DNA of 64,000 bases from a bacterium (GTDB taxonomy: Bacteria > Sumerlaeota > Sumerlaeia > SLMS01 > JAHLLQ01), in the NCBI GenBank assembly GCA_020444065.1, contig JAHLLQ010000003.1, positions 132,979 through 196,978 of the forward strand, in the 5' to 3' direction. Made by a program: the position numbers and the translations under genes. The notes below the pieces were generated by a model. It was given only the letters and a program-made list of their open reading frames with translations, ran no database searches and was not told the DNA's origin. Shown here in pieces: positions 10,965 to 64,000 of this stretch (its first letter is position 1; the number at the start of each line of letters is the position of its first letter).

Positions 10965-11043
10965 CAGATTTCTCATAGCGTCCCCCCGTACTGCCGTCCC
11001 CGCCGTCCCCCCGATCGGCGGGGATGGCGCATGTGGGGGTATT

Positions 11044-11190
11044 GTTGCACGCCTACAGCGTGCGGACCTTTGGGCTTCGGTACCCAGGGCGGGGCTCGCC
11101 GGGCGCTCGATTGCCCTGGGCTGTCGGATGTGGAATCCCGTTGGGATTCTTGCTGGGTTGGCCTGGCTTCGCCTGATGATATTCAATTGG
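11044..11190 (+). repeat. Copy 1 of a ~140-bp GC-rich structured direct repeat with three hairpins.
   Basis: About 85% identical to 12350-12482. It contains the palindromes GCACGCC...GGCGTGC, ACCCAGGGC...GCCCTGGG and GGAATCCC..GGGATTCC. Confidence 0.7.
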
Positions 11191-11821
11191 TAGCGCGGCG
11201 GCTGTGCAAGTACGCGATGCCGCGGGCGGTGATCTCGGCCATCATGAGAGCCCAGATCCAGGGGAGTTCGATGATCTGGATCGCCATCGGATGGACGAGG
11301 AGGATCACGGCCGTTTCCGTGCAGAGGCCGAATCCGATGAGCGCCGGAAACAGCCAGTGGCGGGACGGCTGAAGGTATTCCATCCCAACGTAGGAGATCC
11401 AGATGCCGGCGCCGAGACCGAAGTAGAGGAGCAGTCCGGGAGAGTGGGGGAGGAAGGATCTGGCCGGCGTCGGTGTGCAACAAGTCACGAGCAGAAGAAC
11501 GAAGGCCACCATGGATGGCGCCGGAAGTCTCCGCATCAGTCTTCTGCGTGCGATTGCCACGGCCACGGCATTCCCCCGGACTTCTCTTGCCGATCTCTTC
11601 AGGGCGTCCCTGTGCGAAATCCTCCCGGCTGCAATGAACAGGAGGAATACGGCGGAGGGGCAGATGGCAAGCCAGCGGATGGCCAGTGTGGCATCTGGCC
11701 TCTCTTTCATCCAGTCCGCGTTGCTCTCGTAATAGGTGATCAGGTGGTAGCAGTCGAAGAATGCGATGCCGGCCAGGGTGAGACAGAGCAGGAGCCAAGT
11801 TGATTTCAGTGTTTTTTCCAT
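11183..11821 (-). CDS. Polytopic membrane protein (hypothetical), lower GC.
   Basis: 212 aa with several hydrophobic helices. It lies between the two ~140-bp repeats. Confidence 0.5.
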   Translation of the reverse strand: MEKTLKSTWLLLCLTLAGIAFFDCYHLITYYESNADWMKERPDATLAIRWLAICPSAVFLLFIAAGRISHRDALKRSAREVRGNAVAVAIARRRLMRRLPAPSMVAFVLLLVTCCTPTPARSFLPHSPGLLLYFGLGAGIWISYVGMEYLQPSRHWLFPALIGFGLCTETAVILLVHPMAIQIIELPWIWALMMAEITARGIAYLHSRRATN

Positions 11822-11845: not shown

Positions 11846-12343
11846 CTAGCTCGTCAGGTGAACCATGTAGGTGGATTGTTCCGTTTTTCTGACCGTGGAG
11901 TGGTAGCCGATGGAGCCGCCTTCGCTCGGGCAGTAGATCGTCGTGCGGATGTGAAAGCGCGACTCGTTCTCCGTAGAGAGGATACAGACGGAATGGTAGT
12001 ACGAGAGCTGGGGGTGTTCTTGGATGTATTCGTCCATCTCGGCTTTGTCGTTGCGAATGTGGTCGGCCAGGATAAGGGCGACTTCAGCGAGGGTGGTCGC
12101 TTCGATGACTTCGTCCTCTGGCAAGGTGAGAGAGACGTCCTCCGTCGGAATTGGGCCGGATTCCCATGCGCGCAGGAGATGGAGAAGATCGTTCTCCGAG
12201 ATTTCGCTGCCCGGCGGCCAACTGGATGGCGGGGGAACGTGGGGATGGGCGATCGGCTTCTGCTTCTTCGTCATCAAGAGTTCCCTTTTCCGGAGGTTTG
12301 CTGCGGGTCCGTTGCGGGTCAAGCTGGAGGGGTCGGCGGGCAC
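11846..12343 (-). CDS. Hypothetical protein, lower GC. The actual start is possibly at MTKKQKP.
   Basis: ORF co-oriented with, and 25 nt upstream of, the membrane protein gene. No family recognised. Confidence 0.4.
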   Translation of the reverse strand: MPADPSSLTRNGPAANLRKRELLMTKKQKPIAHPHVPPPSSWPPGSEISENDLLHLLRAWESGPIPTEDVSLTLPEDEVIEATTLAEVALILADHIRNDKAEMDEYIQEHPQLSYYHSVCILSTENESRFHIRTTIYCPSEGGSIGYHSTVRKTEQSTYMVHLTS

Positions 12344-12349
12344 GATGGT

Positions 12350-12482
12350 GTTGCACGCTTACAGCGTGCGGGGTTCGTGGCGTTGGTACCCAGGGCGGCG
12401 CTCGCCCGGGGGCTCGCTTGCCCTGGGCTGTCGGGTGTGGAATCCCGTTGGGATTCCAATTGGAATGGCAGCATTCAATTGG
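12350..12482 (+). repeat. Copy 2 of the ~140-bp structured direct repeat.
   Basis: Aligns with 11044-11190 from 'GTTGCACGCYTACAGCGTGCGG' through 'ATTCAATTGG'. Confidence 0.7.
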
Positions 12483-12661: not shown

Positions 12662-13138
12662 ATGCGCAAACTCTTGCTTGCACTGGTAGTGGTATGTGCT
12701 CCCCTTCTCACCGGATGTCTTGGCATGACCCCCATGCCGATGTCCCAGTATACCAATGACAAAGGCCTGGATAACGAGCACGTCACTCGGACTCTGGATC
12801 CTGTCAATGCCGAGTACAAAATCCTCGGCGCCGTCGAAGCGACGGGAAATTCGCGCGTTATTTGCGGTTTCGTGTTTGCTGAAGGCTCGGAAGGCTACGG
12901 CCTGCTGATGCGCAATGCCCGCGATCAGTACGATCCGGACACGACGACGATTCTGTTCCCGATGATGGACTACGAGTACTCCGGTATTCTGTACCCGATC
13001 TGGGGCACGATGAAGACGAACTACTACGGCACGGCTGTGAAGGCGACCGACATCGAGCAGATGGGTGCGGACGTCGCGGTGGACGAGGACGTCTATCCGG
13101 ACTCGGGCGGCCTGCTTGGTGGCTTGCTTCCGTTCTGA
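12662..13138 (+). CDS. Lipoprotein (hypothetical).
   Basis: Signal peptide with lipobox 'LLTGC'. A GGAGG RBS is upstream. Confidence 0.6.
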   Translation: MRKLLLALVVVCAPLLTGCLGMTPMPMSQYTNDKGLDNEHVTRTLDPVNAEYKILGAVEATGNSRVICGFVFAEGSEGYGLLMRNARDQYDPDTTTILFPMMDYEYSGILYPIWGTMKTNYYGTAVKATDIEQMGADVAVDEDVYPDSGGLLGGLLPF

Positions 13139-13166
13139 TGAACGCGACGAGCGGATGAAGTTGAAG

Positions 13167-13200
13167 AACCCGGCGGGTCGACCGCCGGGTTCTTTGTGTG
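13167..13200. terminator. Intrinsic terminator hairpin between convergent genes.
   Basis: AACCCGGCGG-GTCGA-CCGCCGGGTT followed by CTTTGTG. Confidence 0.55.
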
Positions 13201-13249: not shown

Positions 13250-15112
13250 TCATAAGCGGGATTCGGGCCGGCAATGATTTCCTGTGCTGCAGTACCCGCA
13301 GGTCGAACGATCCTTGAAGTACACGACTTCAGGCACATGGCAGAAGTAGTAATATTTGATCTGTGGATGGAAGACAGCTCCCTGTGAACCGAGCCTGAAC
13401 CACGAGCACCAGATTACATTCTCATATGGTAGTTGTTCGCTCCCGTTCCATCCAAGTGAATCCCTAAGGATTTGCATCGCGGTTCTTCCCTCAGAGATGA
13501 TGTCGTCCACGAAGAGTATGCTCCCCTTTCCAGAAGGAATGACCGGGGCGACTTCCAGTCTAATGTGGCGATGTCCTTTCTCATAGAAAGTGAATGTGGC
13601 TGCCGCTTCCATTTCAAGCGCTAAGTGCGCTGCAAACGGAATCGTACTCGTTCCGACTCCCACCACGCAATCGACCTTCAATGGCCTTACCGTATCAACG
13701 ACGACTCTGCGCATTTCAGAGAGAAGAGAGAGCTGGGAGATCAGGGAGCGGCATTTCAATAGGATATTCGTGTGTGCTCCCGTCTCCAATACTACTCGGG
13801 CAAATATGCGGTTTGACTGGTACCAATCCCTGAGCGCGCTTTCAATATCCGGGGCATCCAACCTGAAATCGCCATTCGAAGGCTCTGGCAGCAAAATCTC
13901 GGCAGTCGTACTAGCATTCTCCAGCAACTGACATCCTACAAAACCGCCTGCCTCCTCGCCTGCACCATCGTCGCAGCTACCATTCAGAGGTGGAAGGGAG
14001 TGCATTGGATCTGCTTGTTCTTTCGAATCCCCGGCGCTCATTGTCTGCACCGATTGTGTCCACCTGTCGATTGTCTCCGCGATTACTTCCTCCGATAACA
14101 TCACCTCCTGAGCCGCTGTAGGAAAGCGCTTAGAAACAGTGGCGTCGACACGATTCTTCGGTTCGCCAGCCTTCTCGAACATCGCATTGATTTTTCGAAT
14201 TTCGCTTTCGATCTTGCTAATCCTGAACTCGCTCAAGAAGCGCTCTGCGCTCTCCTTAAGGGCTCCACTTGATTCTAATGGATATACCGGTCGAAGTTGG
14301 ATCTCAGCAGCCCTCTCTGATCCCGTGACTATTATCTCTTTCACGAGTGCGCATGAAAGCCAGTGTGTTTGTGATTCAGGCGGGACGTCAGAGCTACTGA
14401 AGCGCTCTAGCTTGGAAAGTCTCAGTTGGGATCCATCGAGTTCATCTGCCAGCCTGAGCAGTCCTGCAAGCAGGCGTGGGCGAAAAAGATCCTCGCGGAA
14501 TTTCGTCATTGTGAACTTCGGAGACCCGGAGCTGTGGCACTCATCCCACAAGCGTCCATTTGAGTGTGCAAAGGCAATCAGGTGGCATTTGTGTAAGAAA
14601 TCTCGCGATCTTGGATCGGCGAGGCAGGGCGGGGGTATTGCCTTGGGCCATATGCCATCATCTTTCACGGCTTCTTGAATCAATCTGCGGCCAATCTCCA
14701 CATGACTCTTGCGCACCTGATCGGGCGTAAGATCACCCAAGTCCTCGTAGAGAGTCTCCCTAAGGCTCTTCTTTGCGGGAGCCTCCTGGGCAGAGATCAG
14801 ACGATATTGCATCCCAATGTCGTGGATCGCGGACGCCACAGCGAGAGCTACTAATTCAGGAATGGACAGCGGGGGCACCTTGTGCGCGTAGCCATTCTCG
14901 AATAGCTGTTGGCAGTATCCACAAATACGAAGCGAGTGCTCGAGAGTGTGGTCGGTATAGAACGTGTCTTCAATCCTCTCCCATATCGAATGGGCGGTGA
15001 CAATAGCAAGTCGGAGACTACCCTTCATGTCGAAGTCGGGATAAGATCTCAAATCAGAAACGCCCAGTCTCTCCAGGAAGCGCCCGACTTCCCTATCCGG
15101 ATCGATAGACAT
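13250..15112 (-). CDS. HD-domain phosphohydrolase fused to a type I phosphoribosyltransferase domain, with a C-terminal Cys cluster.
   Basis: N-terminal HD motifs (H..H, 'AIHDIGM', 'LADELD'). C-terminal PRPP-binding loop 'ILFVDDIISEGRTA'. Terminal 'CHVPEVVYFKDRSTCGYCSTGNHC'. Low GC. An AGGAG RBS is present. Confidence 0.7.
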   Translation of the reverse strand: MSIDPDREVGRFLERLGVSDLRSYPDFDMKGSLRLAIVTAHSIWERIEDTFYTDHTLEHSLRICGYCQQLFENGYAHKVPPLSIPELVALAVASAIHDIGMQYRLISAQEAPAKKSLRETLYEDLGDLTPDQVRKSHVEIGRRLIQEAVKDDGIWPKAIPPPCLADPRSRDFLHKCHLIAFAHSNGRLWDECHSSGSPKFTMTKFREDLFRPRLLAGLLRLADELDGSQLRLSKLERFSSSDVPPESQTHWLSCALVKEIIVTGSERAAEIQLRPVYPLESSGALKESAERFLSEFRISKIESEIRKINAMFEKAGEPKNRVDATVSKRFPTAAQEVMLSEEVIAETIDRWTQSVQTMSAGDSKEQADPMHSLPPLNGSCDDGAGEEAGGFVGCQLLENASTTAEILLPEPSNGDFRLDAPDIESALRDWYQSNRIFARVVLETGAHTNILLKCRSLISQLSLLSEMRRVVVDTVRPLKVDCVVGVGTSTIPFAAHLALEMEAAATFTFYEKGHRHIRLEVAPVIPSGKGSILFVDDIISEGRTAMQILRDSLGWNGSEQLPYENVIWCSWFRLGSQGAVFHPQIKYYYFCHVPEVVYFKDRSTCGYCSTGNHCRPESRL

Positions 15113-16160
15113 ATCGAATCTCCTCTCGGGGTGTGCAGAGCGAGAAGATGCTCTCTGGACTAACTAGAAAAGGACGACCAATCGAGAGATTGAAGCAGCA
15201 TATTACTTGGCACACTTCTGTGTCGATAGCATTCAGTACCATTAGGGCCTTGTCTATTTCTGCCCCTGTAGCCATGACTTCCGCAAGAAGTGCGGCTCTG
15301 GCACCGGATAGGACTGTATTTCTGGCGGCAGAGATTCGCTTCGCGGGAATTGGCCCAACCTTATCGATAACACAGAGCTGAATCCCAGTGATGGCCTGTA
15401 CAGCGGCGGCGACAAAGAGAGAGGATTGATTCGCCACGACCAGCGTATCCACATCACGTGTATGGCTAATCGTGTCATCGCAGTATCCACCCAAGAGCCG
15501 GTAGGTGACTTCATAGGCACAATCAAGGAGATCCTGGGGACGGGTAAGCATATGCTTTATGGAGAGGTAGCATGACGTGTACATGCCATTATCCATCTGT
15601 AAGAATGGCTTTCCCTCAATCTCTGTCTTTACGAAGAAACCATTCGATTCCGTGGGCAAAATGATGCCTCCGGCACTGAGGTACTTCCTGAACAATCGAT
15701 CCGACCAGAACTGTCGAAATTCGAGAAGGGTCGAAAATGGGAACCGCGTCTGAAGGTCAACAAGCAACTTGGAATTGTGGCCGGCGAACCTCTCGACCAA
15801 GTTGCCTTCACGATCGAAGCTTATAAATGGAATATGGACGTGTGACCATTCTTCTCTGAGGGCCTTCTCGAGTTTCGACTCGCCCCTCACGAGTGCGAAT
15901 CCATCACTGGATGAAAGCGGAGATGCCATTAGCTCCAAGAAGGCACTCACTCGATCGGGCGCAATAGAAAGGGCACTGAAAGGCGTGAAATCTATGACTG
16001 CGGGAGATTCGTGCGGAAGAATTGCTTCAAGCGCGAGTCGCAAGTCTCTTTCGTGTTGAAGAGTTCCATAATCGTAATCCCGCAAGCGCGCGAGTGGATT
16101 AAACTGGCCTGAGCGCAGCTCACGGGCAATCGCCAATTTCAAAGGGTCAACAACTTTCAC
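15093..16160 (-). CDS. PRTase-like protein with a degenerate PRPP loop (possibly non-catalytic).
   Basis: C-terminal 'TLVVANQSSLFVAAAVQAITG...ALLAEVMATGAEI' mirrors a PRTase core, but 'AE' replaces the acidic 'DD'. GTG start abuts the upstream gene's stop (TAAAGTG). It overlaps the downstream gene by 20 nt. Confidence 0.55.
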   Translation of the reverse strand: MKVVDPLKLAIARELRSGQFNPLARLRDYDYGTLQHERDLRLALEAILPHESPAVIDFTPFSALSIAPDRVSAFLELMASPLSSSDGFALVRGESKLEKALREEWSHVHIPFISFDREGNLVERFAGHNSKLLVDLQTRFPFSTLLEFRQFWSDRLFRKYLSAGGIILPTESNGFFVKTEIEGKPFLQMDNGMYTSCYLSIKHMLTRPQDLLDCAYEVTYRLLGGYCDDTISHTRDVDTLVVANQSSLFVAAAVQAITGIQLCVIDKVGPIPAKRISAARNTVLSGARAALLAEVMATGAEIDKALMVLNAIDTEVCQVICCFNLSIGRPFLVSPESIFSLCTPREEIRYVYRSG

Positions 16161-16161
16161 T

Positions 16162-17445
16162 TTATTGTACCCGTTTCCTCAATCTAAACTCTATCATTAT
16201 CTGACATCCGAAAGAGGCGGGAAGTGTCGTGAATTTCGAACTCCTGCGCACGAATTCAAGTGCTCTCTTCCATAGGTTGAGAAAGCATGCATGACCTTCT
16301 TCTTGAAGCATCCCTGGAGAAGCCTCGACTTCCCTTTGAATCAGCTCTCGATGCTCCCGAAAGTAGTCCAAGTCTTTTGCCTCTCGAAATTCGAATGTCA
16401 GGCATCCTTCATTGCTTATCATCGTGAAACAAGCTTGGTCAAAGGCCGAATCGGCATCGAGGCTGGACAGGTATTTTAGTATCGAGATTAAGCCGTGCTT
16501 CTTGCGCTCGATATGAAGCAACCGAAGGGCGCAGGCAGCTTCCAGTGTAGCCCGTGAGTTGGTGGGAGATATACTAAGTGCATTCAATAGATTGCCTGAG
16601 GTGTGACCCAGTTCCCGCTTCATGACCTCAACAAGGTTGTCGTGTACTCCATCCCCCGGATCGCAGCATATCATTCTTACCCGAGCTGGATTGCTGAAGG
16701 CGGGCTGATGTTCGACGACCGGATACGCGGTCCTTGCATACTTGATAGAGTTTGATATTAGCTCGACGCAAGAATCCGCAAAAAGCCGGTGTTCATCCTC
16801 GATTGCCAGGATCCTCTCCAGATCCTCAGTCTGGGCACTCTCTGGTTGCTCGAGGAAGAGGCGGAAGTAATCATGGACCCATTTGCGATAGGGCTCCGTC
16901 GCCGAATTCATAATGTCCCCGACGGTGGTTGAAAGTCCTGTCATTAGCTCGAAGAACCCCGCAGGCTCTCGCTCCACGACCCTTGTTAGCCGGATTAGAG
17001 AATTTCGGCTATCAAGATTCTGGGCTTGATCCGGACGCAAGTCAGACGTCTTCCAGAAGTCGCCAAGTTGCGTGAACTTGGCGTTCTCCTCCGACTCCCA
17101 GTAAATCAGCTCACCTCCAGCCCTTTGCCAGAGTGAGGGGAATCCGGTAAACCACACGAGCCTGCTGGGGAATGAGCCTGCCTTTGGGAGTTCGACCTCG
17201 GTTGGCCCAAGGCTCTTCCTGTATCTCCATTCGCAACCGGCAACTAACCATGCTAAACCGGATACCTCGAGCCGCTGGAAGTCGTCCAGCTTGACGCGAC
17301 AGACACCAGATGACATCAAGATATGGATCCCGTCGTGCGGCGGCTTGACGAAGTAGTCCCAGTCGAGTGTTTTCACTTTTCGATCTCCATGGGATATTAA
17401 TGAACATACGCGATGCACAGGCCTCTGGTGCAAGTGAAAACACAA
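16162..17445 (-). CDS. Hypothetical protein, first gene of the low-GC three-gene island. The C-terminal half is possibly HEAT/ARM-like.
   Basis: 427-aa ORF. TTG start in the track; an internal ATG alternative is near 17316. No family recognised. Confidence 0.5.
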   Translation of the reverse strand: MCFHLHQRPVHRVCSLISHGDRKVKTLDWDYFVKPPHDGIHILMSSGVCRVKLDDFQRLEVSGLAWLVAGCEWRYRKSLGPTEVELPKAGSFPSRLVWFTGFPSLWQRAGGELIYWESEENAKFTQLGDFWKTSDLRPDQAQNLDSRNSLIRLTRVVEREPAGFFELMTGLSTTVGDIMNSATEPYRKWVHDYFRLFLEQPESAQTEDLERILAIEDEHRLFADSCVELISNSIKYARTAYPVVEHQPAFSNPARVRMICCDPGDGVHDNLVEVMKRELGHTSGNLLNALSISPTNSRATLEAACALRLLHIERKKHGLISILKYLSSLDADSAFDQACFTMISNEGCLTFEFREAKDLDYFREHRELIQREVEASPGMLQEEGHACFLNLWKRALEFVRRSSKFTTLPASFGCQIMIEFRLRKRVQ

Positions 17446-17618
17446 GTGGTAGAAGTTCTAGGGGCTTGCCGGAACCCAAATGGGCATAGTGGCATTGGGG
17501 ACTGAAGGGGGAGTGAGTGTCGGCACGAGCTTGCCTGCCAATATCCTCCTGCGGGTGGTTGGCTTGGATGTTGCCTCGGCGGTGGAGGCAGTTGGATTCT
17601 GACCCTGGGGGTCTGGAT

Positions 17619-18812
17619 ATGAAGATCGGTATTGTGTGTTATCCGACGTACGGCGGGTCCGGCGTGGTGGCGACGGAGTTGGGGCGGTTTCTGGCGCTGC
17701 GCGGGCACGAGGTGCATTTTATTTCGGCCTCGCTGCCGTTCCGGCTGGCTCAGTCGACGGATGACAACATTCATTTCCACGAGGTGCAGTCGATCACTTA
17801 TCCGGTGCTGCAGGGCGAGCTGTATGGCGTGACGCAGGCTTCGAAAATCGTGCAGGTGGTGGAGGAGTTCGGGTTGGACGTGGTGCATGTGCATTACGCG
17901 GTGCCGCATGCGATTTCGGCGTTTATGGCGCGCGAGGTTCTGGGGCGCGAGGATCATCCGTTCAAGGTGGTGACGACGCTGCACGGGACGGACATTACGC
18001 TGGTGGGACGCGCGCCGTCGTTCTTTCCGATTGTGCGTTATGCGATCGATTACTCGGACGCGGTGACGACGGTGTCGGAGTGGTTGCGGCGCGAGACGAT
18101 CGATGAATTTGCGATCAAGCGGCCGATCGAAGTGATTCCGAACTTCGTGGATGTGAAGACTTTCCGGCGCGGTCTGCAGCCGTGCAAACGGAAGCACTAT
18201 GCGCCGAATGGCGAGAAGATCGTGATGCACACGTCGAACTTCCGTCCGGTGAAGCGCGTTCAGGATGTGATCAAGACGTTTGCGAAGTTGCGCAAGGAGG
18301 TGCCCGCGGTCTTGTTAATGATCGGCGATGGGCCAGACCGCGACATGGCGCATTCGCTGGCGCGGGATCTTGGGGTGGATCGCCACACACACTTCCTGGG
18401 CAAGCAGGAAAACATCGAGCTGTTCATGTCGTGCGCGGATCTTTTTCTGTTCCCCAGCGAGTATGAGTCTTTCGGCCTGGCGGCGCTGGAAGCGATGGCG
18501 TGCGAAATCCCGGTGGTGGCGTCGGACGCGGGCGGTCTGAAGGAAGTGATCGTGCACGGAGAGACGGGTTTCCGTGCTCCGGTGGGGGATGTGGATGCGA
18601 TGGCAGGTTACGGCATTCAGGTGCTGAAGGATCAATCGCTGGCGAACTCGATCGGTTGGGCGGCGCGCGATGCGGTACACAAGAATTTCCTGCCGGAGAT
18701 CATCGTGCCGCAGTACGAGGCGTTGTATGCGCGGGTGATGAATGGCTCATGGCCGGTGCGGCCGGCGCCGGAATCGCGCGATGAAGTGTTCCGTCACGCG
18801 GAGGGGATTTGA
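17619..18812 (+). CDS. bshA: GT4 glycosyltransferase, BshA/MshA-like (N-acetyl-alpha-D-glucosaminyl L-malate synthase family).
   Basis: 'MKIGIVCYPTYGGSGVVATELGRFLALRGHEVHFIS' is a near-signature N-terminus for BshA. A C-terminal GT-B EX7E region is present. Confidence 0.75.
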   Translation: MKIGIVCYPTYGGSGVVATELGRFLALRGHEVHFISASLPFRLAQSTDDNIHFHEVQSITYPVLQGELYGVTQASKIVQVVEEFGLDVVHVHYAVPHAISAFMAREVLGREDHPFKVVTTLHGTDITLVGRAPSFFPIVRYAIDYSDAVTTVSEWLRRETIDEFAIKRPIEVIPNFVDVKTFRRGLQPCKRKHYAPNGEKIVMHTSNFRPVKRVQDVIKTFAKLRKEVPAVLLMIGDGPDRDMAHSLARDLGVDRHTHFLGKQENIELFMSCADLFLFPSEYESFGLAALEAMACEIPVVASDAGGLKEVIVHGETGFRAPVGDVDAMAGYGIQVLKDQSLANSIGWAARDAVHKNFLPEIIVPQYEALYARVMNGSWPVRPAPESRDEVFRHAEGI

Positions 18813-19177
18813 GGGACGGCCTTGTCGCGTACTCGTACTCAGCGAAGCGGTACTCGAACTCGTACTCGGAGTTGTTTCATGCTGCTGCTTGCGGGCGCCG
18901 AAGTTCGAGAACGATTACGAGCACGAACCCGGAATGGGTCGCGTCGGAAAAGGACAGTCAATTGAGGTGACTTGGCCATCCTTGGCCAAGCGTCCGGGGC
19001 GCGAGCAGGTTCCGTACGGTTCACGACCTTTCTCCACATTCATACGCGAAGCTTGGTTGGCTCGCTCTTGGGCAGAGATGCCCAAGTCACCTCGATGTGA
19101 TCGCTGGCGAGATGCGGCACTGGTTTCGTTGGGGCGTGCGGGTGTACTTGCCGGTTGGAAGCCAGCGGTCCCGGATA

Positions 19178-20653
19178 TTACGGTGCAACGAGGAGGGAGG
19201 CGGCCCAGTTGAGTTCGTCCGGGGCCATGGCGTAGAGGCGTTTGCCTTCTCGGTTCGTCTCATTCAGGCATCGGACGATGGAGACGGCGTGCCATTGGCC
19301 GCCGTTGTATTCGTAGCGCGTTTCCAGCCATTGTTCGCCGACTTCTTCGCCGTCGCGGTACCAGTTCATGTGGTATTTGACGACGGCGCGAGGGTAGTTG
19401 ACTTCTTCCGAAAGCTCGTGCGTTTCGCCGATCAGTTCGCCGTGGAATGTGGCGGCGCTGTTGCTGCCCCTGACCGTGCGCGGGATGCCGACGCGTGCGG
19501 CGATTTGTGCGGAATCTTCGCGGATCTTTGCGGCGAGTTGTTCGCGCATTCCTTCCGTGGGAGCGGGCGGGGCGATTCTTGTATTCTGCATCGGAGGCGG
19601 CGTCGGGAACGGCGTCGGGAAGGGTGTCGGGAACGGTGTCGGCCTTGCGCTGGGCGAGTCGGCAAAGGGATCTTCGACGACCTCGGCGATCTCGTTGGCT
19701 GGCGGTTTCTCGGCGTTCTTTGCGTCTTCACCGCGCTCGTACCATTCGCTGACGGTGGAATTGCCGATGGGCGACGTGTCGAGAATGAACTCGAAGATGA
19801 CTCCAAAGATGGCCACGCAGAGCAGGAGAACGCCACCGATGACGGCGGGCCAGAAGAGCCAGCCGATGCGCTCGGCCAGGTCGTCGAGTTTTTTGGCAAA
19901 GCCGCCGCCTTTCTTCTTCTTGCCGGGCTTCGTTTTGATGACGCGTTTGTCGATGTCGGGCAGTTCATCGCCGGGCACGACGAGGCCCCGCAGCGCGGTG
20001 GCGAGCGTTTTGACTTCGGGATCGTCGGAGGCTTGGTCGAGCAAGGCGATGAGTTCGCGACGATTGGCAACGTCGGTGCGTTGCGTCAGCAGGCCGCCAA
20101 GAAACGCCGCGGTATCGCGCGTGAGCTCGCTGGCCTTCACGCGTTCGGCAGTGACGGAGCCCAGAAGGCGCTCCGTCCCCCATTCCATTCCGGCGCGATC
20201 GCGAAACAGAATGCAGTGCGCGATGTAGACTTCGTGCAGGATGGCACTGCCATCGTCGAGAGGCTCAGGCACGCGCTCGAGCACCGTTCGATAATGGGCG
20301 AGCCACTCGGCGGGGGAGTTGGGGAGTTCTTCGTAGGTCTGGCGCGAGATGTCGGCGGCAAAGTCGGAGAGGGCCTGGGCGGCGGTGTGGCAGGACAGGC
20401 CCCAGAAGAGCGGGTCGTGCCCCCACGTGTCGTATCCGCCGACGAGTTGCTCGATGGCTCGGTCGGGATTTCCATAGGCCATGGACTGAAGGACTTCTTC
20501 GACGAGGTCGCCGGGGCCTTCGAGGAGGCGCGTAGCCATAAGGAGGCGCGAAGCGCTCCAGGAGATGTCTTCCTGGCGCTGAGCATTGGTGGCGGGCTGG
20601 TCAATCTGGGCCCGCAGGGCGCGCGCGTATTCGATGGTTTGATTATACGGCAA
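19178..20653 (-). CDS. Hypothetical single-pass membrane protein with a (TPFP)n linker.
   Basis: Protein-like composition, unlike the antisense ORF at 19097-20731. KKKK patch followed by a TM helix. 'PTPFPTPFPTPFPTP' repeat. Confidence 0.5.
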   Translation of the reverse strand: MPYNQTIEYARALRAQIDQPATNAQRQEDISWSASRLLMATRLLEGPGDLVEEVLQSMAYGNPDRAIEQLVGGYDTWGHDPLFWGLSCHTAAQALSDFAADISRQTYEELPNSPAEWLAHYRTVLERVPEPLDDGSAILHEVYIAHCILFRDRAGMEWGTERLLGSVTAERVKASELTRDTAAFLGGLLTQRTDVANRRELIALLDQASDDPEVKTLATALRGLVVPGDELPDIDKRVIKTKPGKKKKGGGFAKKLDDLAERIGWLFWPAVIGGVLLLCVAIFGVIFEFILDTSPIGNSTVSEWYERGEDAKNAEKPPANEIAEVVEDPFADSPSARPTPFPTPFPTPFPTPPPMQNTRIAPPAPTEGMREQLAAKIREDSAQIAARVGIPRTVRGSNSAATFHGELIGETHELSEEVNYPRAVVKYHMNWYRDGEEVGEQWLETRYEYNGGQWHAVSIVRCLNETNREGKRLYAMAPDELNWAASLLVAP

Positions 20654-21053
20654 GCCTCGCCTCCTTCTCAGACTGCCGACGACAGGTGTTGTCCCTTGTG
20701 GCGGGTGCGAGGCGCTGGGCGCAAGGATTGAGTCGGCTTATGGCAAGAGTGGGGGAGGGGACGAGGCGGCCAAGTCACCTCGGTTCCCGTTCCCTTCCCA
20801 TTCCCTGCATGTACTCGAACCCGCACCCGAAACCCCAAAAAACGAGTGCGATGACGAGCCCTCGCCACAGCCCGAAGGGATTATACAACTCAGCCAAGGG
20901 TAAGCCGAAGGCGCCACCCTGGGTGGCAGATCGCCGCCAAACTGAACCCCGACGGGGTTCGACACCTCCTCCCGTCGCCTTCTCCCTTGACGGCGCATCA
21001 TCATATCATGATGAATGGATGCGCAAGGACAACACCAGGAGGAACACTCCATC

Positions 21054-38833: not shown

Positions 38834-38909
38834 TGGTGGAGCTGAGGGGAGTCGAACCCCTGACCTCTGCATTGCGAACGCAGCGCTCTACCAACTGAGC
38901 TACAGCCCC
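38834..38909 (-). tRNA. tRNA-Ala (anticodon CGC).
   Basis: Reverse complement gives GGGGCTGTAGCTCAGTTGGTAGAGCGCTGCGTTCGCAATGCAGAGGTCAGGGGTTCGACTCCCCTCAGCTCCACCA. It has a G3:U70 pair, anticodon loop TTCGCAA, a TPsiC arm and a CCA end. Confidence 0.85.
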
Positions 38910-39094: not shown

Positions 39095-39240
39095 AAGAGG
39101 GCAACATAGGTTGCTGGTGCTCCTCGCGATCCGCGCGGGGGGCGGCAAGGGGAAGTCCGGTGAGAGTCCGGCGCAGGCCCGCTACGGTAATCGCGTCCGC
39201 AAGGAGCGCGAAAGCCCGATACCGCCAGTCATCCGACGAC
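39095..39240 (+). promoter_or_regulatory. Cobalamin (B12) riboswitch.
   Basis: 'GGTGCTCC...AAGGGGAAGTCCGGTGAGAGTCCGGCGCAGGCCCGCTACGGTAA...AAGCCCGATACCGCCAGTC' matches the cobalamin-riboswitch core and B12 box. A terminator-type expression platform follows. Confidence 0.75.
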
Positions 39241-39302
39241 GAAGTGCCCTACCCTCTCGAGGTCCGGAGCGGCAGGGGACGAGCCGGATTAGATTTTGCG
39301 CG

Positions 39303-59114: not shown

Positions 59115-60050
59115 TCAGCTGCGACGTTTGCGGCGTGAGCGGGGTTTCTTGTCTTCCCTGGCAGGTTCGGGGGCTGCGTCTTCTTTGGGCAGGGGAGGGG
59201 CGGTGCTGGGGTGGCTGTGGGGGGAGATCGGTTGTTTGTGCGACCACCACAGGAGGCCGACTCCGATGGGGACCATCAGGAGCGAGAGGATCTGGGAGGT
59301 GCTGAGGAGGCCGCCGAGCCACAGGCCGCGTTCGGCGTCGCCGCGCAGGAATTCGAGGAGGAACCGCAGCAGGGCGTAGCCGATGACGTACAGCGCCAAA
59401 GTCTGCCCCGGGCGACGCGGGCGGGTCGCGAACCAGAGCAGCGCGAAGCCGATCAGGAAGAGTCCGGCGGACTCCATGAGCTGCACCGGCCAGATGCCAA
59501 GGCTGTGCCCGGCGCCGGGCGGGATGACACCGCGGGAGAGCTGGTCCTCGAAGGCGTTGTAGAACGGCAGGCCGTTGGGCTGAGTGTGGGGCTCGATGTG
59601 GATGGCGAACGGGGAATTGCACTGGCCGCCGAAGCAGCAGCCGGCGAAGTGACACCCAATGCGGCCGAAGGCATGGCCGATGGCGATGCTGGGCGCGACG
59701 ATATCGCCCATCGGCAGGATCGGGATTTTGCGCCATCTGAGGAAGATGATGCAGCAGATGACGGCGCCGATCAGTCCGCCGAGGAAGACGAATCCGGTCC
59801 GCGAGAGCAGGATGCTCATCGGGTCGGTTTTGAAGGTCTCCCATTCCAGGAAAATGAAGAAGATGCGGGCGGAGACGAGTCCGCCGATGACGGCCACAAG
59901 CGCGAGATCGAACACGCGATCGGGTGCGATGCCGCGGCGTCGGGCGCGCCAGCTGGCGAGCGTGACGGCGACGAGCAAGCCGAGGGCGACCATGACTCCG
60001 TAGGTGCCGATAAAGAAGGAATCGCCGATCTGGATGAGTACGGGGTGCAT
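59115..60050 (-). CDS. lgt: Prolipoprotein diacylglyceryl transferase.
   Basis: 'GHAFGRIGCHFAGCCFG' Lgt signature. Seven TM helices. Confidence 0.85.
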   Translation of the reverse strand: MHPVLIQIGDSFFIGTYGVMVALGLLVAVTLASWRARRRGIAPDRVFDLALVAVIGGLVSARIFFIFLEWETFKTDPMSILLSRTGFVFLGGLIGAVICCIIFLRWRKIPILPMGDIVAPSIAIGHAFGRIGCHFAGCCFGGQCNSPFAIHIEPHTQPNGLPFYNAFEDQLSRGVIPPGAGHSLGIWPVQLMESAGLFLIGFALLWFATRPRRPGQTLALYVIGYALLRFLLEFLRGDAERGLWLGGLLSTSQILSLLMVPIGVGLLWWSHKQPISPHSHPSTAPPLPKEDAAPEPAREDKKPRSRRKRRS

Positions 60051-60297
60051 TGGATCTCCTGGAGGCCGTCAAGCAACGACCAGGCGCGCAGTGTGGGCGC
60101 CGGGGAGGATGAGAGGCAAACGAAATGCCAAGAGCAGTGGCTAGTGGCGAGTGGCGAGTGGCCTTCGCTGAAGCTGCGGCGCCCTACGGTGATGAGTCGC
60201 AACAAAGGATCGTGCCAGCGCCTTGCGCGTCTCGATCTTGGCCCAAGCAGAACGCCCTGGCACGTTGGGAAGGGCTGAGGTTTCCACACGAAACGGG

Positions 60298-60503
60298 GTT
60301 GCCTCGGACATCGGCCGGGATGTTTTCTATGCATGTCGGTATTTCGAGGATAGCCAAAGATGGCACGGCTTGCTCGTATCGTTTCGCCCGGGGGCGGCAC
60401 TCGCCTTCGCCGCCACAAGCGCAGGCGGTTATCGAAAGAGGAAGAATCTACCGGCAAGATGGAGATGACGTTCGATGAATAGAGTATCCTGTCGCCGAAT
60501 GTC
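60298..60503 (+). repeat. Copy 1 of a ~210-bp GC-rich structured repeat (family C) with terminal inverted repeats GGACATCGGC...GCCGAATGTCC.
   Basis: 80-90% identical to 61281-61498, 62287-62386 (partial) and 62871-63083. Internal palindrome GACATCGGCCGGGATGTT. Confidence 0.7.
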
Positions 60504-60582
60504 CCACACCTACCGGATAAGTGCAGTAAGGACATTCGCAGCAATTCAGTAGTGCAAGATACTCAATCATGAGGAAGGCATA

Positions 60583-61257
60583 ATGAAAATCAGGCCAAAC
60601 TCCTTTCGACGTGTTGTCTGTCTGTGTGTCACCTCCGTAGTTGTTGCAGTTGTGATGTTTGGGAGAATCACGGCGAATGGCGTATCCAGTGACTTTCACT
60701 TCACATGGAGGAATGTGACAGTTTCCGATATCATCGGGGGCGTGGTCGCGGATCTTAGAAAGAGGGACAGCACGACGGATGTTGTTGTGGAGCTTCCCGG
60801 ATTTGGGGGGCTTGGGTTCGTTCATGTATTCACGGAGACAAGTCATGATGATACCATCGTGTACTCAGTGATCAGCGTGGATGCCGAATCGTTGGAAGAG
60901 CTGGCCCAGCAATTGGAGGCGCAAATGCGCAACTTCAGAATCGCCTACAACAAGAATATGGACATCCTGTCTTTCATTGACCCCAGAGTTGCAGATAGCA
61001 GCGATTGGCAGCTGAACATAGCCGTGCACAAGGCGGTCTCGCTGGAGGAGGATTGCAATATCGAACCGGCTTCAGATTATGACTTCCCCCCTCTCGACGT
61101 GAAGCTCCCTCCGGTCCGAGACTTCGTATTCAGATACGTTGAGTCCCTGGAGGGGCCTTGTCACTACGTGGCAATTACTCGTGGAGCTACGGATCGTTTA
61201 GTGATGCTCATTGATCAGGCTCCGACATACGTCAGAGATCCCTCAGGCACGAAATAG
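60583..61257 (+). CDS. Cassette ORF 1: signal-anchored hypothetical protein, lower GC.
   Basis: 224 aa; N-terminal TM helix 'VVCLCVTSVVVAVVMF'. Lies between repeat copies 1 and 2. Confidence 0.5.
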   Translation: MKIRPNSFRRVVCLCVTSVVVAVVMFGRITANGVSSDFHFTWRNVTVSDIIGGVVADLRKRDSTTDVVVELPGFGGLGFVHVFTETSHDDTIVYSVISVDAESLEELAQQLEAQMRNFRIAYNKNMDILSFIDPRVADSSDWQLNIAVHKAVSLEEDCNIEPASDYDFPPLDVKLPPVRDFVFRYVESLEGPCHYVAITRGATDRLVMLIDQAPTYVRDPSGTK

Positions 61258-61280
61258 AAGCCGTGGTAATACGGGCACAG

Positions 61281-61498
61281 GATACTCTTATCTTGCCTCG
61301 GACATCGGCCGGGATGTTCTCTATATATGCAGGTATTTCGGGGAACGCTCATTATGGCGCAGTTGGCGCGCATCGTTTCGCCCGGGGGCGGGACTTGTCT
61401 TCGGCGCTATTAACGCGGGCGGTTATCGAAAAAGGAGAAATCTCTCGGCCAGATGGAAATGAAGTTCGATGAATAGAGTATCCTGTCGCCGAATATCC
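61281..61498 (+). repeat. Copy 2 of the family-C structured repeat.
   Basis: Alignment with copy 1. Confidence 0.7.
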
Positions 61499-61551
61499 TC
61501 TGACCTTATTCATCCCGATTGGCGATGAAATCAGACTGGCGAGACTGACTT

Positions 61552-62223
61552 ATGCTGCTCGAAATCACGACTCATCAGTATCAGGTACGGTGCCGACGGT
61601 GTTCCAGGAATTACTGGGGAGAAATTGGTCCCGATGCCTACGAAGGATTTCTTCTGCTGGACGAACACTATGTGCCCGCTGGCTGTTGGCGGCTAGATGA
61701 TTGGCTCTGGGAGGATCTGAGGGTCCTCATACAAGGCTACGAGGGGATTCATCCCGAGCGGATGCTGCAGTTGGAATGGATTCAGGAAACCAAGCGGGGA
61801 GTCCAGCGCGATCTTCTATTGGGTATGGTCTTGGCCGCAGAGTCGCATCATCCCGGATACCGCCTGCATTGTCTGCCACCATGTCCTAATTGTGGCGAAT
61901 ACGCTGTCTATTACATGGTTACTGGGCACATCAAAAGAAACCTGCAGCAACTTACTGCTGACAGTTGGCGAAAGCGAACGGATGCTGATCGGCAGACGGT
62001 AGCATTCGGATACCTGGATTATCTCCATGATCATCCTCCGCTCGATCATGTCGATGTTTTGACCGTCCCGCCAGTCACCCTATATGAGTCCATGATTGGG
62101 AATATGGACGGACTCAAAAGGGGAGAGATCCTCGAAAGGCTCTTGAAGCACTTCGCGCGACTCGGCATGGAACCTCCAAGGATTGCCGATGATGACTTCG
62201 AAGTTCCTGACTACAGATTCTAG
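61552..62223 (+). CDS. Cassette ORF 2: cytoplasmic hypothetical protein with two CxxC pairs (zinc-ribbon-like), lower GC.
   Basis: 223 aa; 'CRRCS' ... 'CPNCG'. Confidence 0.5.
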   Translation: MLLEITTHQYQVRCRRCSRNYWGEIGPDAYEGFLLLDEHYVPAGCWRLDDWLWEDLRVLIQGYEGIHPERMLQLEWIQETKRGVQRDLLLGMVLAAESHHPGYRLHCLPPCPNCGEYAVYYMVTGHIKRNLQQLTADSWRKRTDADRQTVAFGYLDYLHDHPPLDHVDVLTVPPVTLYESMIGNMDGLKRGEILERLLKHFARLGMEPPRIADDDFEVPDYRF

Positions 62224-62286
62224 ACCCACATGCCTTCAAGCGCGAAGCCGAATTTTCTGCAAGACTGGGACGGCAAAACGTGGACT

Positions 62287-62386
62287 GGATACTCTTATCT
62301 TGCCTCGGACATCGGTCGGGATGTCTTCTATGCATGTCGGTATTTCGCGGAACTCTCTTCACGGCGCAGTTGGCGCGCATCATTGG
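62287..62386 (+). repeat. Copy 3 (truncated, ~100 bp) of the family-C repeat, fused to the start of the next ORF.
   Basis: Aligns with the 5' half of copies 1 and 2. Confidence 0.6.
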
Positions 62387-62394
62387 TATTTCCC

Positions 62395-62835
62395 ATGAAA
62401 GCTCACCTTGGTGAAAAGAGGTCGTGGCCCGCATCAGCACGAGCAGTTGTCCTGATCTTCATCATGCTGTCACTTATCGCCAGCTATGTCACTTACAGGG
62501 TTTCTGTGGGTCCGATTTCCACTCAGGAAGCAATGAAGACACGAGAGGCGAAGGGAATACTGAAGGAGCTGGAGCTAGAATTGCGCACTCAAGCCAATCG
62601 AGGAAAGTCCCAATGGACGATCGAAGAAGTAAATAATACTGTTTCCTCCTTGGGCCTAAAAGATCCATTCCGATTCAACTCCCCCATGGCCATTCAGGAA
62701 GATGGCCAATTCTGGCTTGTCTTCAGGGGTGACCCAAGTGGGACTCCCTACGATCCGACAAACGGCGCGTTATCTCCGGGGTGGATCCAGTTTGATTTTG
62801 TGCCTGGGCAAGCCCCGATGGCCGATGGGGATTGA
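62395..62835 (+). CDS. Cassette ORF 3: signal-anchored small hypothetical protein.
   Basis: Start 'MKAHLGEKRSW' directly after the truncated repeat. TM helix 'VVLIFIMLSLIASYV'. The track ORF from 62230 includes repeat sequence and is rejected. Confidence 0.45.
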   Translation: MKAHLGEKRSWPASARAVVLIFIMLSLIASYVTYRVSVGPISTQEAMKTREAKGILKELELELRTQANRGKSQWTIEEVNNTVSSLGLKDPFRFNSPMAIQEDGQFWLVFRGDPSGTPYDPTNGALSPGWIQFDFVPGQAPMADGD

Positions 62836-62870
62836 ATCTTCGTGGCAATGGCAAAAACGGTGACAAAAAC

Positions 62871-63083
62871 CTCTCTTCTTGCCTCGGACATTGGCCGGGG
62901 TGACTTCTATGCATGTCGGTATTTGGAGGATAGCCGGCCATGACACGGCTTGCTTGTTCGCATCCTCTCGCCCGGGGGCGGCACTCGCCTTCGCCCCACC
63001 GGCGCGGGCGGAAATCGAAAGAGGAGGAATCTCCCGGCCGGATGGAACTGACGTTCGATGAATGGCGTGTCTTGTCCCCGAAT
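62871..63083 (+). repeat. Copy 4 of the family-C structured repeat.
   Basis: Alignment with copies 1 and 2. Confidence 0.7.
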
Positions 63084-63139
63084 TTCTCGATAGCGCCTCA
63101 CGGAAGCGACCTCCAAGTAGGTATGGCTGGAAGTAGCCA

Positions 63140-63949
63140 CTAGTCTGGAATCTGAATTGTACCAGTCGCCTCCAGTCCTCGTGACGGGGGCACAAGAAGA
63201 TCGAACTTGATTCGATGGGGGCTGTCTGGATCGATGCGGAGATTGCCTTTCTGAGGATCAGGGTCGATTAGAATCAGCTCATCTCGGTCCGGTGAGAGGT
63301 AATAGACTCCCGCGTCTCGCGCATGCCCGTCAGGTGCAATCCAATAGCCCATTCGGATAACAAGTCCCCCGCTGAGGAGCGGAAGTACCTCCCACACGGC
63401 GGCACGTCCGGATAGCACTTCTTCCAGGGATTCGCTCCCGGGGCTCCAGGAAAGGAGAGTACTGGAGCAGACGTACAAGACTTGCTTCCGAGGATCCCAA
63501 ACGAAGTCAGGAACCGCTCCGTCCAATTTGCCAATGCATTTCGAGCTTTCCTCTCTTGGTTCAATGACCCAGATCTCATGAGCCCTGGAGATTGGTGTTT
63601 CGCTCGTGCGAAGGCGCCTCGCCTCTGGATTTGTTAAGACAATGACAAATGGAGTATCTAAATCCCGCGCCGCAAAATGCGCTCGATCTTGGAGCTTGAG
63701 AATCGGGCGCGAATCTGATCGACGATCAGTTGGCGAGATCGATAGCACCGATCCCCCCTCCTTCCCTGGAGATAGGATTAGCTCCTTGCCGTTACGCGTA
63801 ATGGCGGCCTCAGTTGCAGGAGTGGAAAGTTCTGACGCCAGACTCCTGTCCAGTTGATCATCAAGAGAGGATGCCAGCTGCGCACCGGCAGATTCGATCT
63901 CCGATATCTTTGCAGAAAAGCGCTCTCTGTCGCCGTGATCCTTTCTCAT
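63140..63949 (-). CDS. Hypothetical protein. Its 3' end abuts the last repeat copy.
   Basis: 269-aa ORF with moderate GC. No family recognised. Confidence 0.4.
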   Translation of the reverse strand: MRKDHGDRERFSAKISEIESAGAQLASSLDDQLDRSLASELSTPATEAAITRNGKELILSPGKEGGSVLSISPTDRRSDSRPILKLQDRAHFAARDLDTPFVIVLTNPEARRLRTSETPISRAHEIWVIEPREESSKCIGKLDGAVPDFVWDPRKQVLYVCSSTLLSWSPGSESLEEVLSGRAAVWEVLPLLSGGLVIRMGYWIAPDGHARDAGVYYLSPDRDELILIDPDPQKGNLRIDPDSPHRIKFDLLVPPSRGLEATGTIQIPD

Positions 63950-64000
63950 TCGATAGGAATACTCAACGAGATCTCCTCGAACCTTGAAGTCCCTTAGCTC

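Follow-up and report, generated by a model that had tools for sequence, protein, structure and literature searches.

A compositionally foreign three-gene island encoding a probable GHKL-type ATPase, a phosphoribosyltransferase-like paralog and an HD-CE/phosphoribosyltransferase fusion: a candidate anti-phage conflict system

We describe a three-gene island at positions 13250-17445 of a 64,000-nucleotide (nt) stretch of the Sumerlaeota contig JAHLLQ010000003.1 (this whole stretch is hereafter referred to as the window, and position 1 is its first letter). The island is horizontally acquired and has a foreign base composition. Its genes encode a protein assigned at the family level to the GHKL-type ATPases (gene A), a divergent phosphoribosyltransferase (PRTase) paralog (gene B), and a fusion of an HD-CE domain to a type I PRTase (gene C). 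With a probability of about 0.6, we consider this triad to be a horizontally acquired conflict system, most likely directed against phages, in which C, as the predicted effector, would degrade nucleotides or drain phosphoribosyl pyrophosphate (PRPP) under the control of A and B. The evidence comes from the conserved catalytic residues of C, the relationship between B and C, the fixed order of the three genes in other genomes, their composition and, in some loci, the genes around them. The island was originally picked out from the letters of the DNA, with no database search (hereafter referred to as the sequence-only reading), as a candidate undescribed nucleotide-targeting system; several of the claims made at that stage are refined below.

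The protein encoded by gene C matched the Pfam family HD-CE (PF24391) with 68.1 bits (cut-off 27; expectation value, E, 1.3e-18) over residues 52-257, and all 61 members of the C-family alignment matched the same model. The metal-ligand set is of the six-ligand type (H..HD..H..H..D), a pattern associated with two-metal HD phosphodiesterases, and residues H55, H59, H97, D98, H137, H183 and D223 are invariant in 61/61 sequences. The PRTase half has a PRPP loop with an acidic pair, a small-residue/Gly turn and a Rossmann-like PRTase core. G487, T488, G542 and C605 are invariant in the alignment of 61 sequences, and the two aspartates of the DD motif (D536 and D537), C608 and H447 are each kept in 60. 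The HD and type I PRTase motifs from which the sequence-only reading had deduced a fusion are therefore present, and they are conserved across the family. Only part of the terminal cysteine cluster noted at the same time was retained: a C-x-x-C near the C-terminus (C605 and C608) is found family-wide, but C591 and C614 are not conserved. C454 is kept in 52 of the 61 sequences.

The affinities of the PRTase half were assessed with several sets of models. The Pfam model Pribosyltran aligned with residues 477-545 of the window protein at 14.2 bits, below its cut-off of 26.3, and was matched by 55 of the 61 relatives at E up to 0.1 (best 1.2e-9). The Pfam model PRTase-CE (PF24390) did not match the window protein at E up to 1 and matched five of the 61 relatives (best 2.5e-6). 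On these profile matches, the PRTase domain of C is related to PRTase-CE, without being filed as a member of that family. The NCBIfam models for salvage PRTases (Apt, Hpt, Xpt, PyrE and Upp) gave at best 13-23 bits, against curated cut-offs of 94-656 bits, and the resemblance of C to the OPRT and APRT families is accordingly weak and lies far below the NCBIfam thresholds.

An AlphaFold model of C, built with the 61-sequence alignment, had a mean predicted local distance difference test score (pLDDT) of 86.9, and only the linker at residues 371-412 was disordered. The structural neighbours of the HD-CE domain were phosphodiesterases, HD-GYP domains and HD domains of the PPX/GppA type; the GppA match concerns the helical HD-type domain, and such a match does not establish a shared chemistry. 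No deoxynucleoside triphosphate (dNTP) triphosphohydrolase was present among the structural matches listed for this domain, and C matched none of the dGTPase models used in defence annotation. With a six-ligand HD-CE domain and neighbours of this kind, the analogy with dGTPases drawn in the sequence-only reading is weak. Structure comparison indicated an OPRT/APRT-like fold for the PRTase domain, with PurR, PyrR and a PRPP synthetase-associated protein among its neighbours; a viral structure library returned generic PRTases only. Both halves of C look catalytically competent, because the HD ligands are kept in 61/61 sequences and the DD motif in 60/61, and because the second half is predicted to have an OPRT/APRT-like fold.

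Gene B encodes a second, more divergent PRTase. Profile-profile alignment with hhalign matched residues 187-326 of B to the PRTase domain of C with a probability of 93.6% (E 2e-7), placing EEVIATG of B on DDIISxG of C. Pribosyltran was matched by 13 of the 29 B-family members (best 2.5e-8), a B-family profile search of the PDB retrieved APRT at 5e-4, and the window protein is 28-34% identical to its counterparts in related loci (E down to 2e-47). As judged from these alignments, the PRTase domain of B is a paralog of that of C. The consensus of the loop in 29 sequences is EE/ED-V-x-A-T-G-x-E-x-D, with A-E-V-M-A-T-G-A-E in the window. The description of B as a PRTase core with a replaced acidic pair thus stands with respect to the core, but one acidic residue is retained in the window (AEV) and most relatives have EE or ED. 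The alteration lies further along the loop, where an invariant Glu replaces the phosphate-binding Thr of canonical enzymes, and the canonical catalytic PRPP loop (acidic pair followed by T-G-x-T) is not present in the B family. As the loop is conserved in its altered form, it would have retained a role in ligand binding or as an interface, rather than being in decay, and B is more readily understood as a paralog with a regulatory role than as a gene that has decayed. The proposal that B is a regulatory partner and not a salvage enzyme is consistent with both its paralogy to C and its altered, conserved loop.

The N-terminal region of B (about 185 residues) contains the motifs IDPL, YGxExD and (V/I)D(L/F)TPF and matched no known domain in Pfam searches, PDB profile searches or hhalign tests. 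No DNA- or RNA-binding domain was found in B. Three candidate relationships were rejected. A STAS domain in the N-terminus was ruled out by the hhalign comparison of the B profile with SpoIIAA (probability 0.3%); a domain shared by the N-termini of A and B was also ruled out, as these regions are not homologous; and the top PDB match of the B profile, the designed protein "4D2", was disregarded as a short repeated-segment artefact.

Gene A had been described as unrecognisable, a view that did not survive analysis at the family level. The window protein matched the A-family hidden Markov model (HMM) at 5e-61 and has a longer N-terminus than the family; it is best regarded, on sequence grounds, as a divergent member. 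In an alignment of 25 sequences, the N-box residues E205 and N209 and the G1 box D239-x-G241-x-G243 are invariant. The N-box is usually followed by a His, and the G1 box reads D-x-G-x-G-F. G295-L296, within a G2-like G-L-(F/Y) motif, is nearly invariant, G390 is invariant or nearly so, and the C-terminal motif is P-G-(T/V)-(H/Q)-I. The N-box, G1 and G2 motifs of GHKL proteins therefore occur in the correct order and with the correct spacing. The window protein alone had no Pfam match, and sub-threshold hits to HATPase_c, HATPase_c_2 or HATPase_c_3 were obtained for 8 of the 25 relatives (best 3.9e-4). A PDB profile search placed the ATP-binding domains of DesK at the top, with the N-box aligned and a non-significant E of about 0.2. 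In hhalign comparisons, the segment from the N-box to the G1 box matched SpoIIAB (3.2e-5), RsbW (1.7e-4) and the N-domain of HtpG (3.1e-4), values that are supportive only. Taken at the family level, A is probably an ATPase or kinase-like protein of the GHKL type, in which the GHKL region is preceded by an N-terminal domain without recognised identity (about 130-190 residues).

A shares with the anti-sigma-type kinases SpoIIAB and RsbW, and with the histidine kinases, the N-box (E..N..H), the G1 box (DxGxG) and a G2-like motif. A STAS partner, as in SpoIIAB/SpoIIAA-type partner switching, was not detected, the N-terminus of B having no match to SpoIIAA, and A has neither a dimerisation/His-phosphotransfer domain nor a receiver domain. 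HtpG, from the HSP90-type branch, aligns with A nearly as closely as SpoIIAB and RsbW do.

The relatives of C were identified by exhaustive HMMER searching with a two-sequence profile, which yielded 974 proteins with E values of 1e-3 or lower, 74 of them with values no higher than 1e-30. The HD and PRTase halves occur together in about 85 of the best 150 cluster representatives, and the PRTase-only matches are fragments. A word-indexed search had returned just one relative for C and nothing for A or B, suggesting that all three were near-singletons, an impression overturned by the exhaustive search. For searches of the PDB or with hhalign, profiles built from two sequences carried too little information, and a scan of the genome collection with the two-sequence alignment gave nothing, whereas the 61-sequence alignment found loci. 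Loci were fetched with the C-family alignment from species-representative genomes (20 loci) and from metagenomes (35 loci), and all their open reading frames (ORFs) were searched with iterated HMMs for A, B and C.

Genes A, B and C were found in that order and on the same strand in every locus with a full-length C fusion and enough upstream sequence. The search for co-occurrence elsewhere, suggested in the sequence-only reading, thus gave about 30 A-B-C loci (a few of them duplicates) in at least five bacterial phyla, the named genomes belonging to Verrucomicrobiota, Atribacterota, Acidobacteriota, Gemmatimonadota and Desulfobacterota. The intergenic gaps in most triads lie between -20 and +17 nt, and stop and start codons usually overlap. 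In at least 10 loci (L002, L003, L005, L006, L022, L025, L028, L029, L030 and the window) the overlap between B and C is exactly 20 nt, although protein identity is only 25-35%. The conserved C-terminal YVYRS of B is encoded over the start region of C (15093-15112 in the window), and the recurrence of this overlap suggests selection for translational coupling. No fourth conserved gene was found beside the triad in the related loci, and the distribution across phyla is patchy.

In three of the related loci, C is split into two ORFs or fragmentary (7881-9637 in L006, 7839-9222 and 12196-12573 in L009, and 4361-8604 in L018), L009 having an additional PRTase fragment 3 kb downstream. The frameshifted or degraded state of C in these loci fits dispensable accessory genes with a fast turnover, and is a sign that certain lineages are losing the effector gene through decay.

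The block in the window is filled by the three minus-strand ORFs, and their tight coupling was read directly, as first described: the TAA stop of A is separated by one base from the GTG start of B (TAAAGTG), and B and C overlap by 20 nt, with a ribosome-binding site, GAGAGGAG, ahead of the ATG of C. The GTG start chosen for A is that of both the database record and a gene call on an independent assembly. The low GC content of this block of about 4.2 kb, another of the initial observations, is borne out: at 0.517, it is the minimum among all 4.2-kb intervals of the window, the remainder of which has a mean of 0.612 (standard deviation 0.021), a difference of about 4.5 standard deviations. The GC content at third codon positions is 0.54-0.59 in the island genes, against 0.62-0.80 in neighbouring genes. 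The same tendency was observed in the related loci, the triad having a lower GC content than its flanks in 14/14 loci for which the flanking sequence exceeded 4 kb; the difference averaged -0.088 and reached -0.25 at its largest.

The borders are as the sequence-only reading had placed them, with a terminator on one side and bshA on the other. The hairpin downstream of C has a free energy of -25.4 kcal/mol (z -5.5; none of 200 shuffled sequences was equally stable) and is likely to be a bidirectional terminator marking the 3' edge of the island; a simple terminator scan did not pick it up, because its T-tail is weak. The divergent intergenic region upstream of A marks the 5' edge and presumably contains the operon promoter, although a scan of it gave no consensus sigma-70 site. 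Neither direct repeats nor a tRNA gene nor an integrase flank the island at its borders in the window. The BshA-like glycosyltransferase also scored above threshold on the Pfam model GT4-conflict (43.6 bits, 2.6e-11), but generic GT4/GT1 models scored far higher, and this match probably reflects a general family resemblance. The absence of a nearby reverse transcriptase, also stated at the outset, was confirmed: only the three ORFs lie between bshA and the lipoprotein-like gene, none of them reverse-transcriptase-like, and an Rfam search detected no retron RNA or other Rfam family near the operon. The sole related signal was a non-significant alignment of residues 216-261 of C with the C-terminal part of RT_UG24 (E 0.023). 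The coordinates of the genes, domains and borders are given in Table 1.

Table 1. Features of the A-B-C island and its borders (window coordinates).
Feature	Positions	Strand	Remarks
Gene A	16162-17376	-	404 aa from GTG 17376; longest ORF reaches 17445
GHKL ATPase-like domain of gene A (family-level assignment)	16177-16788	-	~residues 197-400
Gene B	15093-16160	-	ORF, 355 aa
PRTase-like domain of gene B	15147-15602	-	~residues 187-338; PRPP-loop equivalent ALLAEVMATGAEID
Gene C	13250-15112	-	ORF, 620 aa; predicted effector
HD-CE domain of gene C	14342-14959	-	Pfam match to residues 52-257; helical domain runs on to ~330
Type I PRTase domain of gene C	13253-13870	-	~residues 415-620; PRPP loop ILFVDDIISEGRT
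GC-rich hairpin	13164-13194		13-bp perfect stem, between gene C and the convergent lipoprotein-like gene
Lipoprotein-like gene	12662-13138	convergent to gene C	downstream neighbour of the island
Divergent intergenic region, gene A to bshA	17377-17618		~240 bp
bshA	17619-18812	+	solved BshA structures matched along the entire protein (E 1e-106 to 4e-101)

In some of the related loci, the triad has defence genes as neighbours. In one (L030, 9822-12570), a complete Gabija system starts 61 nt after the triad (GajA 7.8e-192, GajB 3e-110), and in another (L007, 2078-5128) the gene immediately upstream encodes a type IIG restriction-modification enzyme. In a set of 117 neighbouring ORFs, PADLOC models matched GajA/GajB, PDC-S01, PDC-S27, PDC-S45, SoFic, MADS and Lamassu components and methyltransferases, and Pfam models matched phage integrases, rve-type integrases and IS200-type transposases. 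The HD-CE domain itself is also found at the N-terminus of other proteins, of 750-1240 residues, with STAND-type NTPase signatures and long TPR arrays (L010, L011, L013, L014, L019, L021, L048, L051), several of them archaeal; the hosts include Methanobacterium, Methanosarcinaceae and Heimdallarchaeota. In these proteins, HD-CE occupies the effector slot of NLR-like immune proteins. One HD-CE protein is fused to an ABC ATPase of the AbiEii/OLD type. Two of the STAND/TPR proteins end in a SEC-C zinc motif.

The suffix CE stands for "conflict effector" (PMC12871103), and the work of Nicastro, Burroughs, Iyer and Aravind (2023; Nucleic Acids Res 51:11479) is cited in the same preprint (PMC12871103). 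Gene C is a clear member of the HD-CE family; the A and B families, by contrast, have no Pfam model. Nicastro and colleagues reportedly named Calcineurin-CE, HD-CE and PRTase-CE as effectors in many immune systems, and are said to have predicted that the CE families break nucleotides down at their phosphate or glycosidic linkages.

The nearest characterised analogue of C is the ShosT toxin, which consists of a phosphohydrolase and a PRTase and the toxicity of which requires the DD motif of the PRTase, with assistance from the hydrolase (PMC11961720). Like C, ShosT has an N-terminal phosphohydrolase fused to a type I PRTase and occurs in a defence context; unlike that of C, its hydrolase has a Rossmann-type pyrophosphatase fold rather than an HD fold. 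Its partner, ShosA, is a DNA-binding (DprA-like) antitoxin, and thus neither a PRTase paralog nor a GHKL ATPase. None of the proteins A, B and C was matched by a PADLOC model for ShosTA, and no DprA-like gene is conserved beside the triad. Type III-A retrons, such as Retron-Eco11, also have a PRTase-fold effector, the activation of which reduces PRPP levels by about 50% and leads to abortive infection (PMC12746101). However, retrons require a reverse transcriptase and a non-coding RNA/msDNA, neither of which is present at the triad locus, and their PRTases have a winged-helix domain and a Gx14PNNxP motif, without the HD domain found in C.

Two further comparisons concern the division of labour within the triad. 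The Calcineurin-CE/HAD pair forms a two-enzyme cascade that dephosphorylates dNTPs sequentially and depletes nucleotides (PMC12871103). The resemblance of PUA-Calcineurin-CE-HAD to the triad lies in the presence of two phosphoesterase-type activities in one complex, the collapse of nucleotide pools, and a regulatory domain holding the complex inactive until a cue is received (PMC12871103). It differs from the triad in its folds (calcineurin-like and HAD, rather than HD and PRTase), in its PUA sensor and in having no ATPase component. For B, the relevant parallel is with proteins of the PRTase fold that have become regulators, such as PurR and PyrR. These proteins, and the PRPP synthetase-associated proteins, resemble B in combining a PRTase fold and an altered PRPP loop with an active paralog alongside. 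B has no DNA- or RNA-binding domain, and the likeness to PurR and PyrR is functional, with no membership claimed.

In the light of these comparisons, the finding is not categorically new: catalogues of effector domains already include those of C, and immunity through nucleotide depletion is an established theme. The original description of an undescribed nucleotide-targeting system holds for a foreign, defence-like module, but "undescribed" was too strong, HD-CE and PRTase-CE having already been named. What appears to be new is the triad itself, in which a GHKL ATPase is constantly associated with a PRTase-like paralog and an HD-CE/PRTase fusion. The A and B families, for which there is no Pfam or PADLOC model, also appear to be new, as does the idea of a regulator derived from a paralog of the effector. 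The DefensePredictor paper includes PRTase and HATPase domains in figure legends only and does not describe the triad.

Several observations weigh against a role in anti-phage defence. This role is predicted for the family as a whole, from sequence and context. No homolog was found in viral contigs, phage records or plasmid records, and a PADLOC check (version 2), recommended in the sequence-only reading, gave no significant match for A, B or C. Of ten immediately adjacent proteins examined, two had a defence match and the other eight had none (a raw count), and PADLOC also matches generic ATPases and methyltransferases. In the window, the island is flanked by the housekeeping gene bshA and the lipoprotein-like gene, without defence genes. 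Other reservations concern the proteins themselves. In most C relatives, the PRTase does not have the canonical Thr residues of the 5'-phosphate loop and, for this reason, its substrate may not be PRPP. The window protein has R439 (13796-13798) at a position at which 60/61 relatives have a His. The GHKL assignment of A is based on motifs and sub-threshold profile matches, the single-sequence AlphaFold model of A reached a pLDDT of only 35, and the window protein has a Tyr at residue 213 (16738-16740), the His position of the N-box.

Four other explanations were weighed against a conflict system. In the first, the triad would be a stress-signalling or alarmone module, with the PRTase folds as sensors of PRPP or (p)ppGpp and the HD domain as the hydrolase of a signalling nucleotide, tuning growth in starvation. 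The presence of GppA, HD-GYP domains, phosphodiesterases and PurR among the structural neighbours of C is compatible with this view, but the GppA match concerns the helical HD-type domain and does not establish a shared chemistry, and HD-CE is found elsewhere in the effector position of STAND/TPR proteins. Moreover, modules of this kind are usually inherited vertically within lineages, whereas the triad is patchy and compositionally foreign in 14/14 loci, and we consider a signalling role unlikely.

The second explanation is a small biosynthetic cassette for a modified nucleoside or a nucleotide-like metabolite: the PRTases would attach ribose phosphate to a base-like compound, a phosphate would then be removed by the HD domain, and an ATP-using enzyme would play an auxiliary part. 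A parallel is provided by the Ter system, the PRTases of which have been proposed to form the basis of a nucleotide-producing pathway (PMC5512222); the triad likewise has two PRTase-fold domains and a phosphohydrolase, and the active-site residues of C are intact. However, genes for tailoring, export or self-resistance are not conserved beside the triad, B does not have the canonical phosphate-binding Thr, and the family context of HD-CE is that of an immune effector. Frameshifted or degraded copies of C, such as those in L006, L009 and L018, fit dispensable accessory genes rather than a biosynthetic pathway, for which we see a low probability. A toxin-antitoxin or addiction module stabilising a mobile element, with C as the toxin, B and/or A as antidotes and no dedicated sensing of phages, seems similarly improbable. 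The tight coupling of the genes and their foreign composition are as would be expected of such a module, integrases and transposases lie near related loci, and ShosTA is itself a toxin-antitoxin system. By contrast, no homolog was found on plasmid or phage records or viral contigs, neither repeats nor an integrase flank the island in the window, and three large proteins, including an ATPase, exceed the needs of a typical module. This explanation also overlaps with defence, as many toxin-antitoxin systems defend against phages. Finally, an ordinary purine or pyrimidine salvage operon with its regulator, the routine alternative envisaged in the sequence-only reading, would account for the database name of C ("phosphoribosyltransferase [bacterium]") and for its weak OPRT/APRT similarity, but is extremely improbable given the NCBIfam scores reported above and an HD-CE fusion, unmatched N-terminal domains, patchiness and low GC content ill-suited to core metabolism.

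If the triad is indeed an anti-phage conflict system, its three genes would act through abortive infection. The HD-CE domain of C would be a metal-dependent phosphohydrolase or phosphodiesterase, and its PRTase domain would act at the ribose C1 of PRPP or of nucleotides; this attack could take the form of PRPP consumption or of cleavage of the bond between base and ribose. ShosT, the Retron-Eco11 PRTase and the Calcineurin-CE/HAD pair are characterised cases in which effectors with PRTase or phosphoesterase folds kill cells, or arrest them, through disturbed nucleotide pools. By analogy with these, attack at C1 and phosphate hydrolysis would together deplete nucleotides or PRPP and so starve phage replication. 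Type I PRTases are dimeric, and B probably pairs with the PRTase domain of C for this reason; it may be an inhibitory or ligand-sensing subunit, as in the cases of PurR and PyrR. A would be an ATP-driven switch or sensor that releases or activates C on receipt of a phage cue. We put forward only tentatively, and as somewhat doubtful in its entirety, the scheme in which a GHKL switch and a pseudo-PRTase sensor restrain a dual-activity HD phosphodiesterase/PRTase until infection frees it to destroy nucleotides or PRPP at their phosphate and ribose-C1 linkages. The substrates of C, the trigger and the physical interactions of B with C and of A with B or C are predictions of this scheme, and any single mechanistic step is much less probable than the overall assignment to a conflict system.

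The window contains several other features. Two copies of a repeat of about 125 nt (11043-11162 and 12349-12469; 82-86% identical, each with the palindrome GGAATCCCGTTGGGATTCC), the only two in the window, bracket the minus-strand ORFs 11183-11821 and 11846-12343, an arrangement that looks like a repeat-flanked cassette or an element resembling a miniature inverted-repeat transposable element. Just beyond bshA, inverted repeats of 30-32 nt with the common core GGCCAAGTCACCTC (18946-18990, 19067-19096 and 20768-20799) bracket an ORF encoding 491 residues with no Pfam match (19178-20653), forming another repeat-flanked cassette. A cobalamin riboswitch (39098-39243, plus strand; 42 bits, E 2.8e-7) adjoins a tRNA-Ala(CGC) gene (38834-38909, minus strand), the only tRNA gene in the window. 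A further acquired island may be represented by a second low-GC block (60000-64000; 0.536 against about 0.61), with several ORFs without obvious identity.

The depletion of nucleotides is increasingly recognised as one of the major immune strategies of bacteria, and it has counterparts in animals. The triad would add to it a compact system in which two nucleotide-attacking chemistries reside in one polypeptide, together with a paralog as regulator and an ATPase as switch. If the proposed scheme is correct, a PRTase effector would have its own paralog, with altered catalytic residues, as an integral regulator, a new control principle in nucleotide-depletion immunity. The family provides about 30 natural variants, from very AT-rich to GC-rich genomes, and its clear catalytic residues give point-mutant controls. 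As it is found almost wholly in uncultured lineages, it also bears on the defence repertoire that lies outside model organisms.

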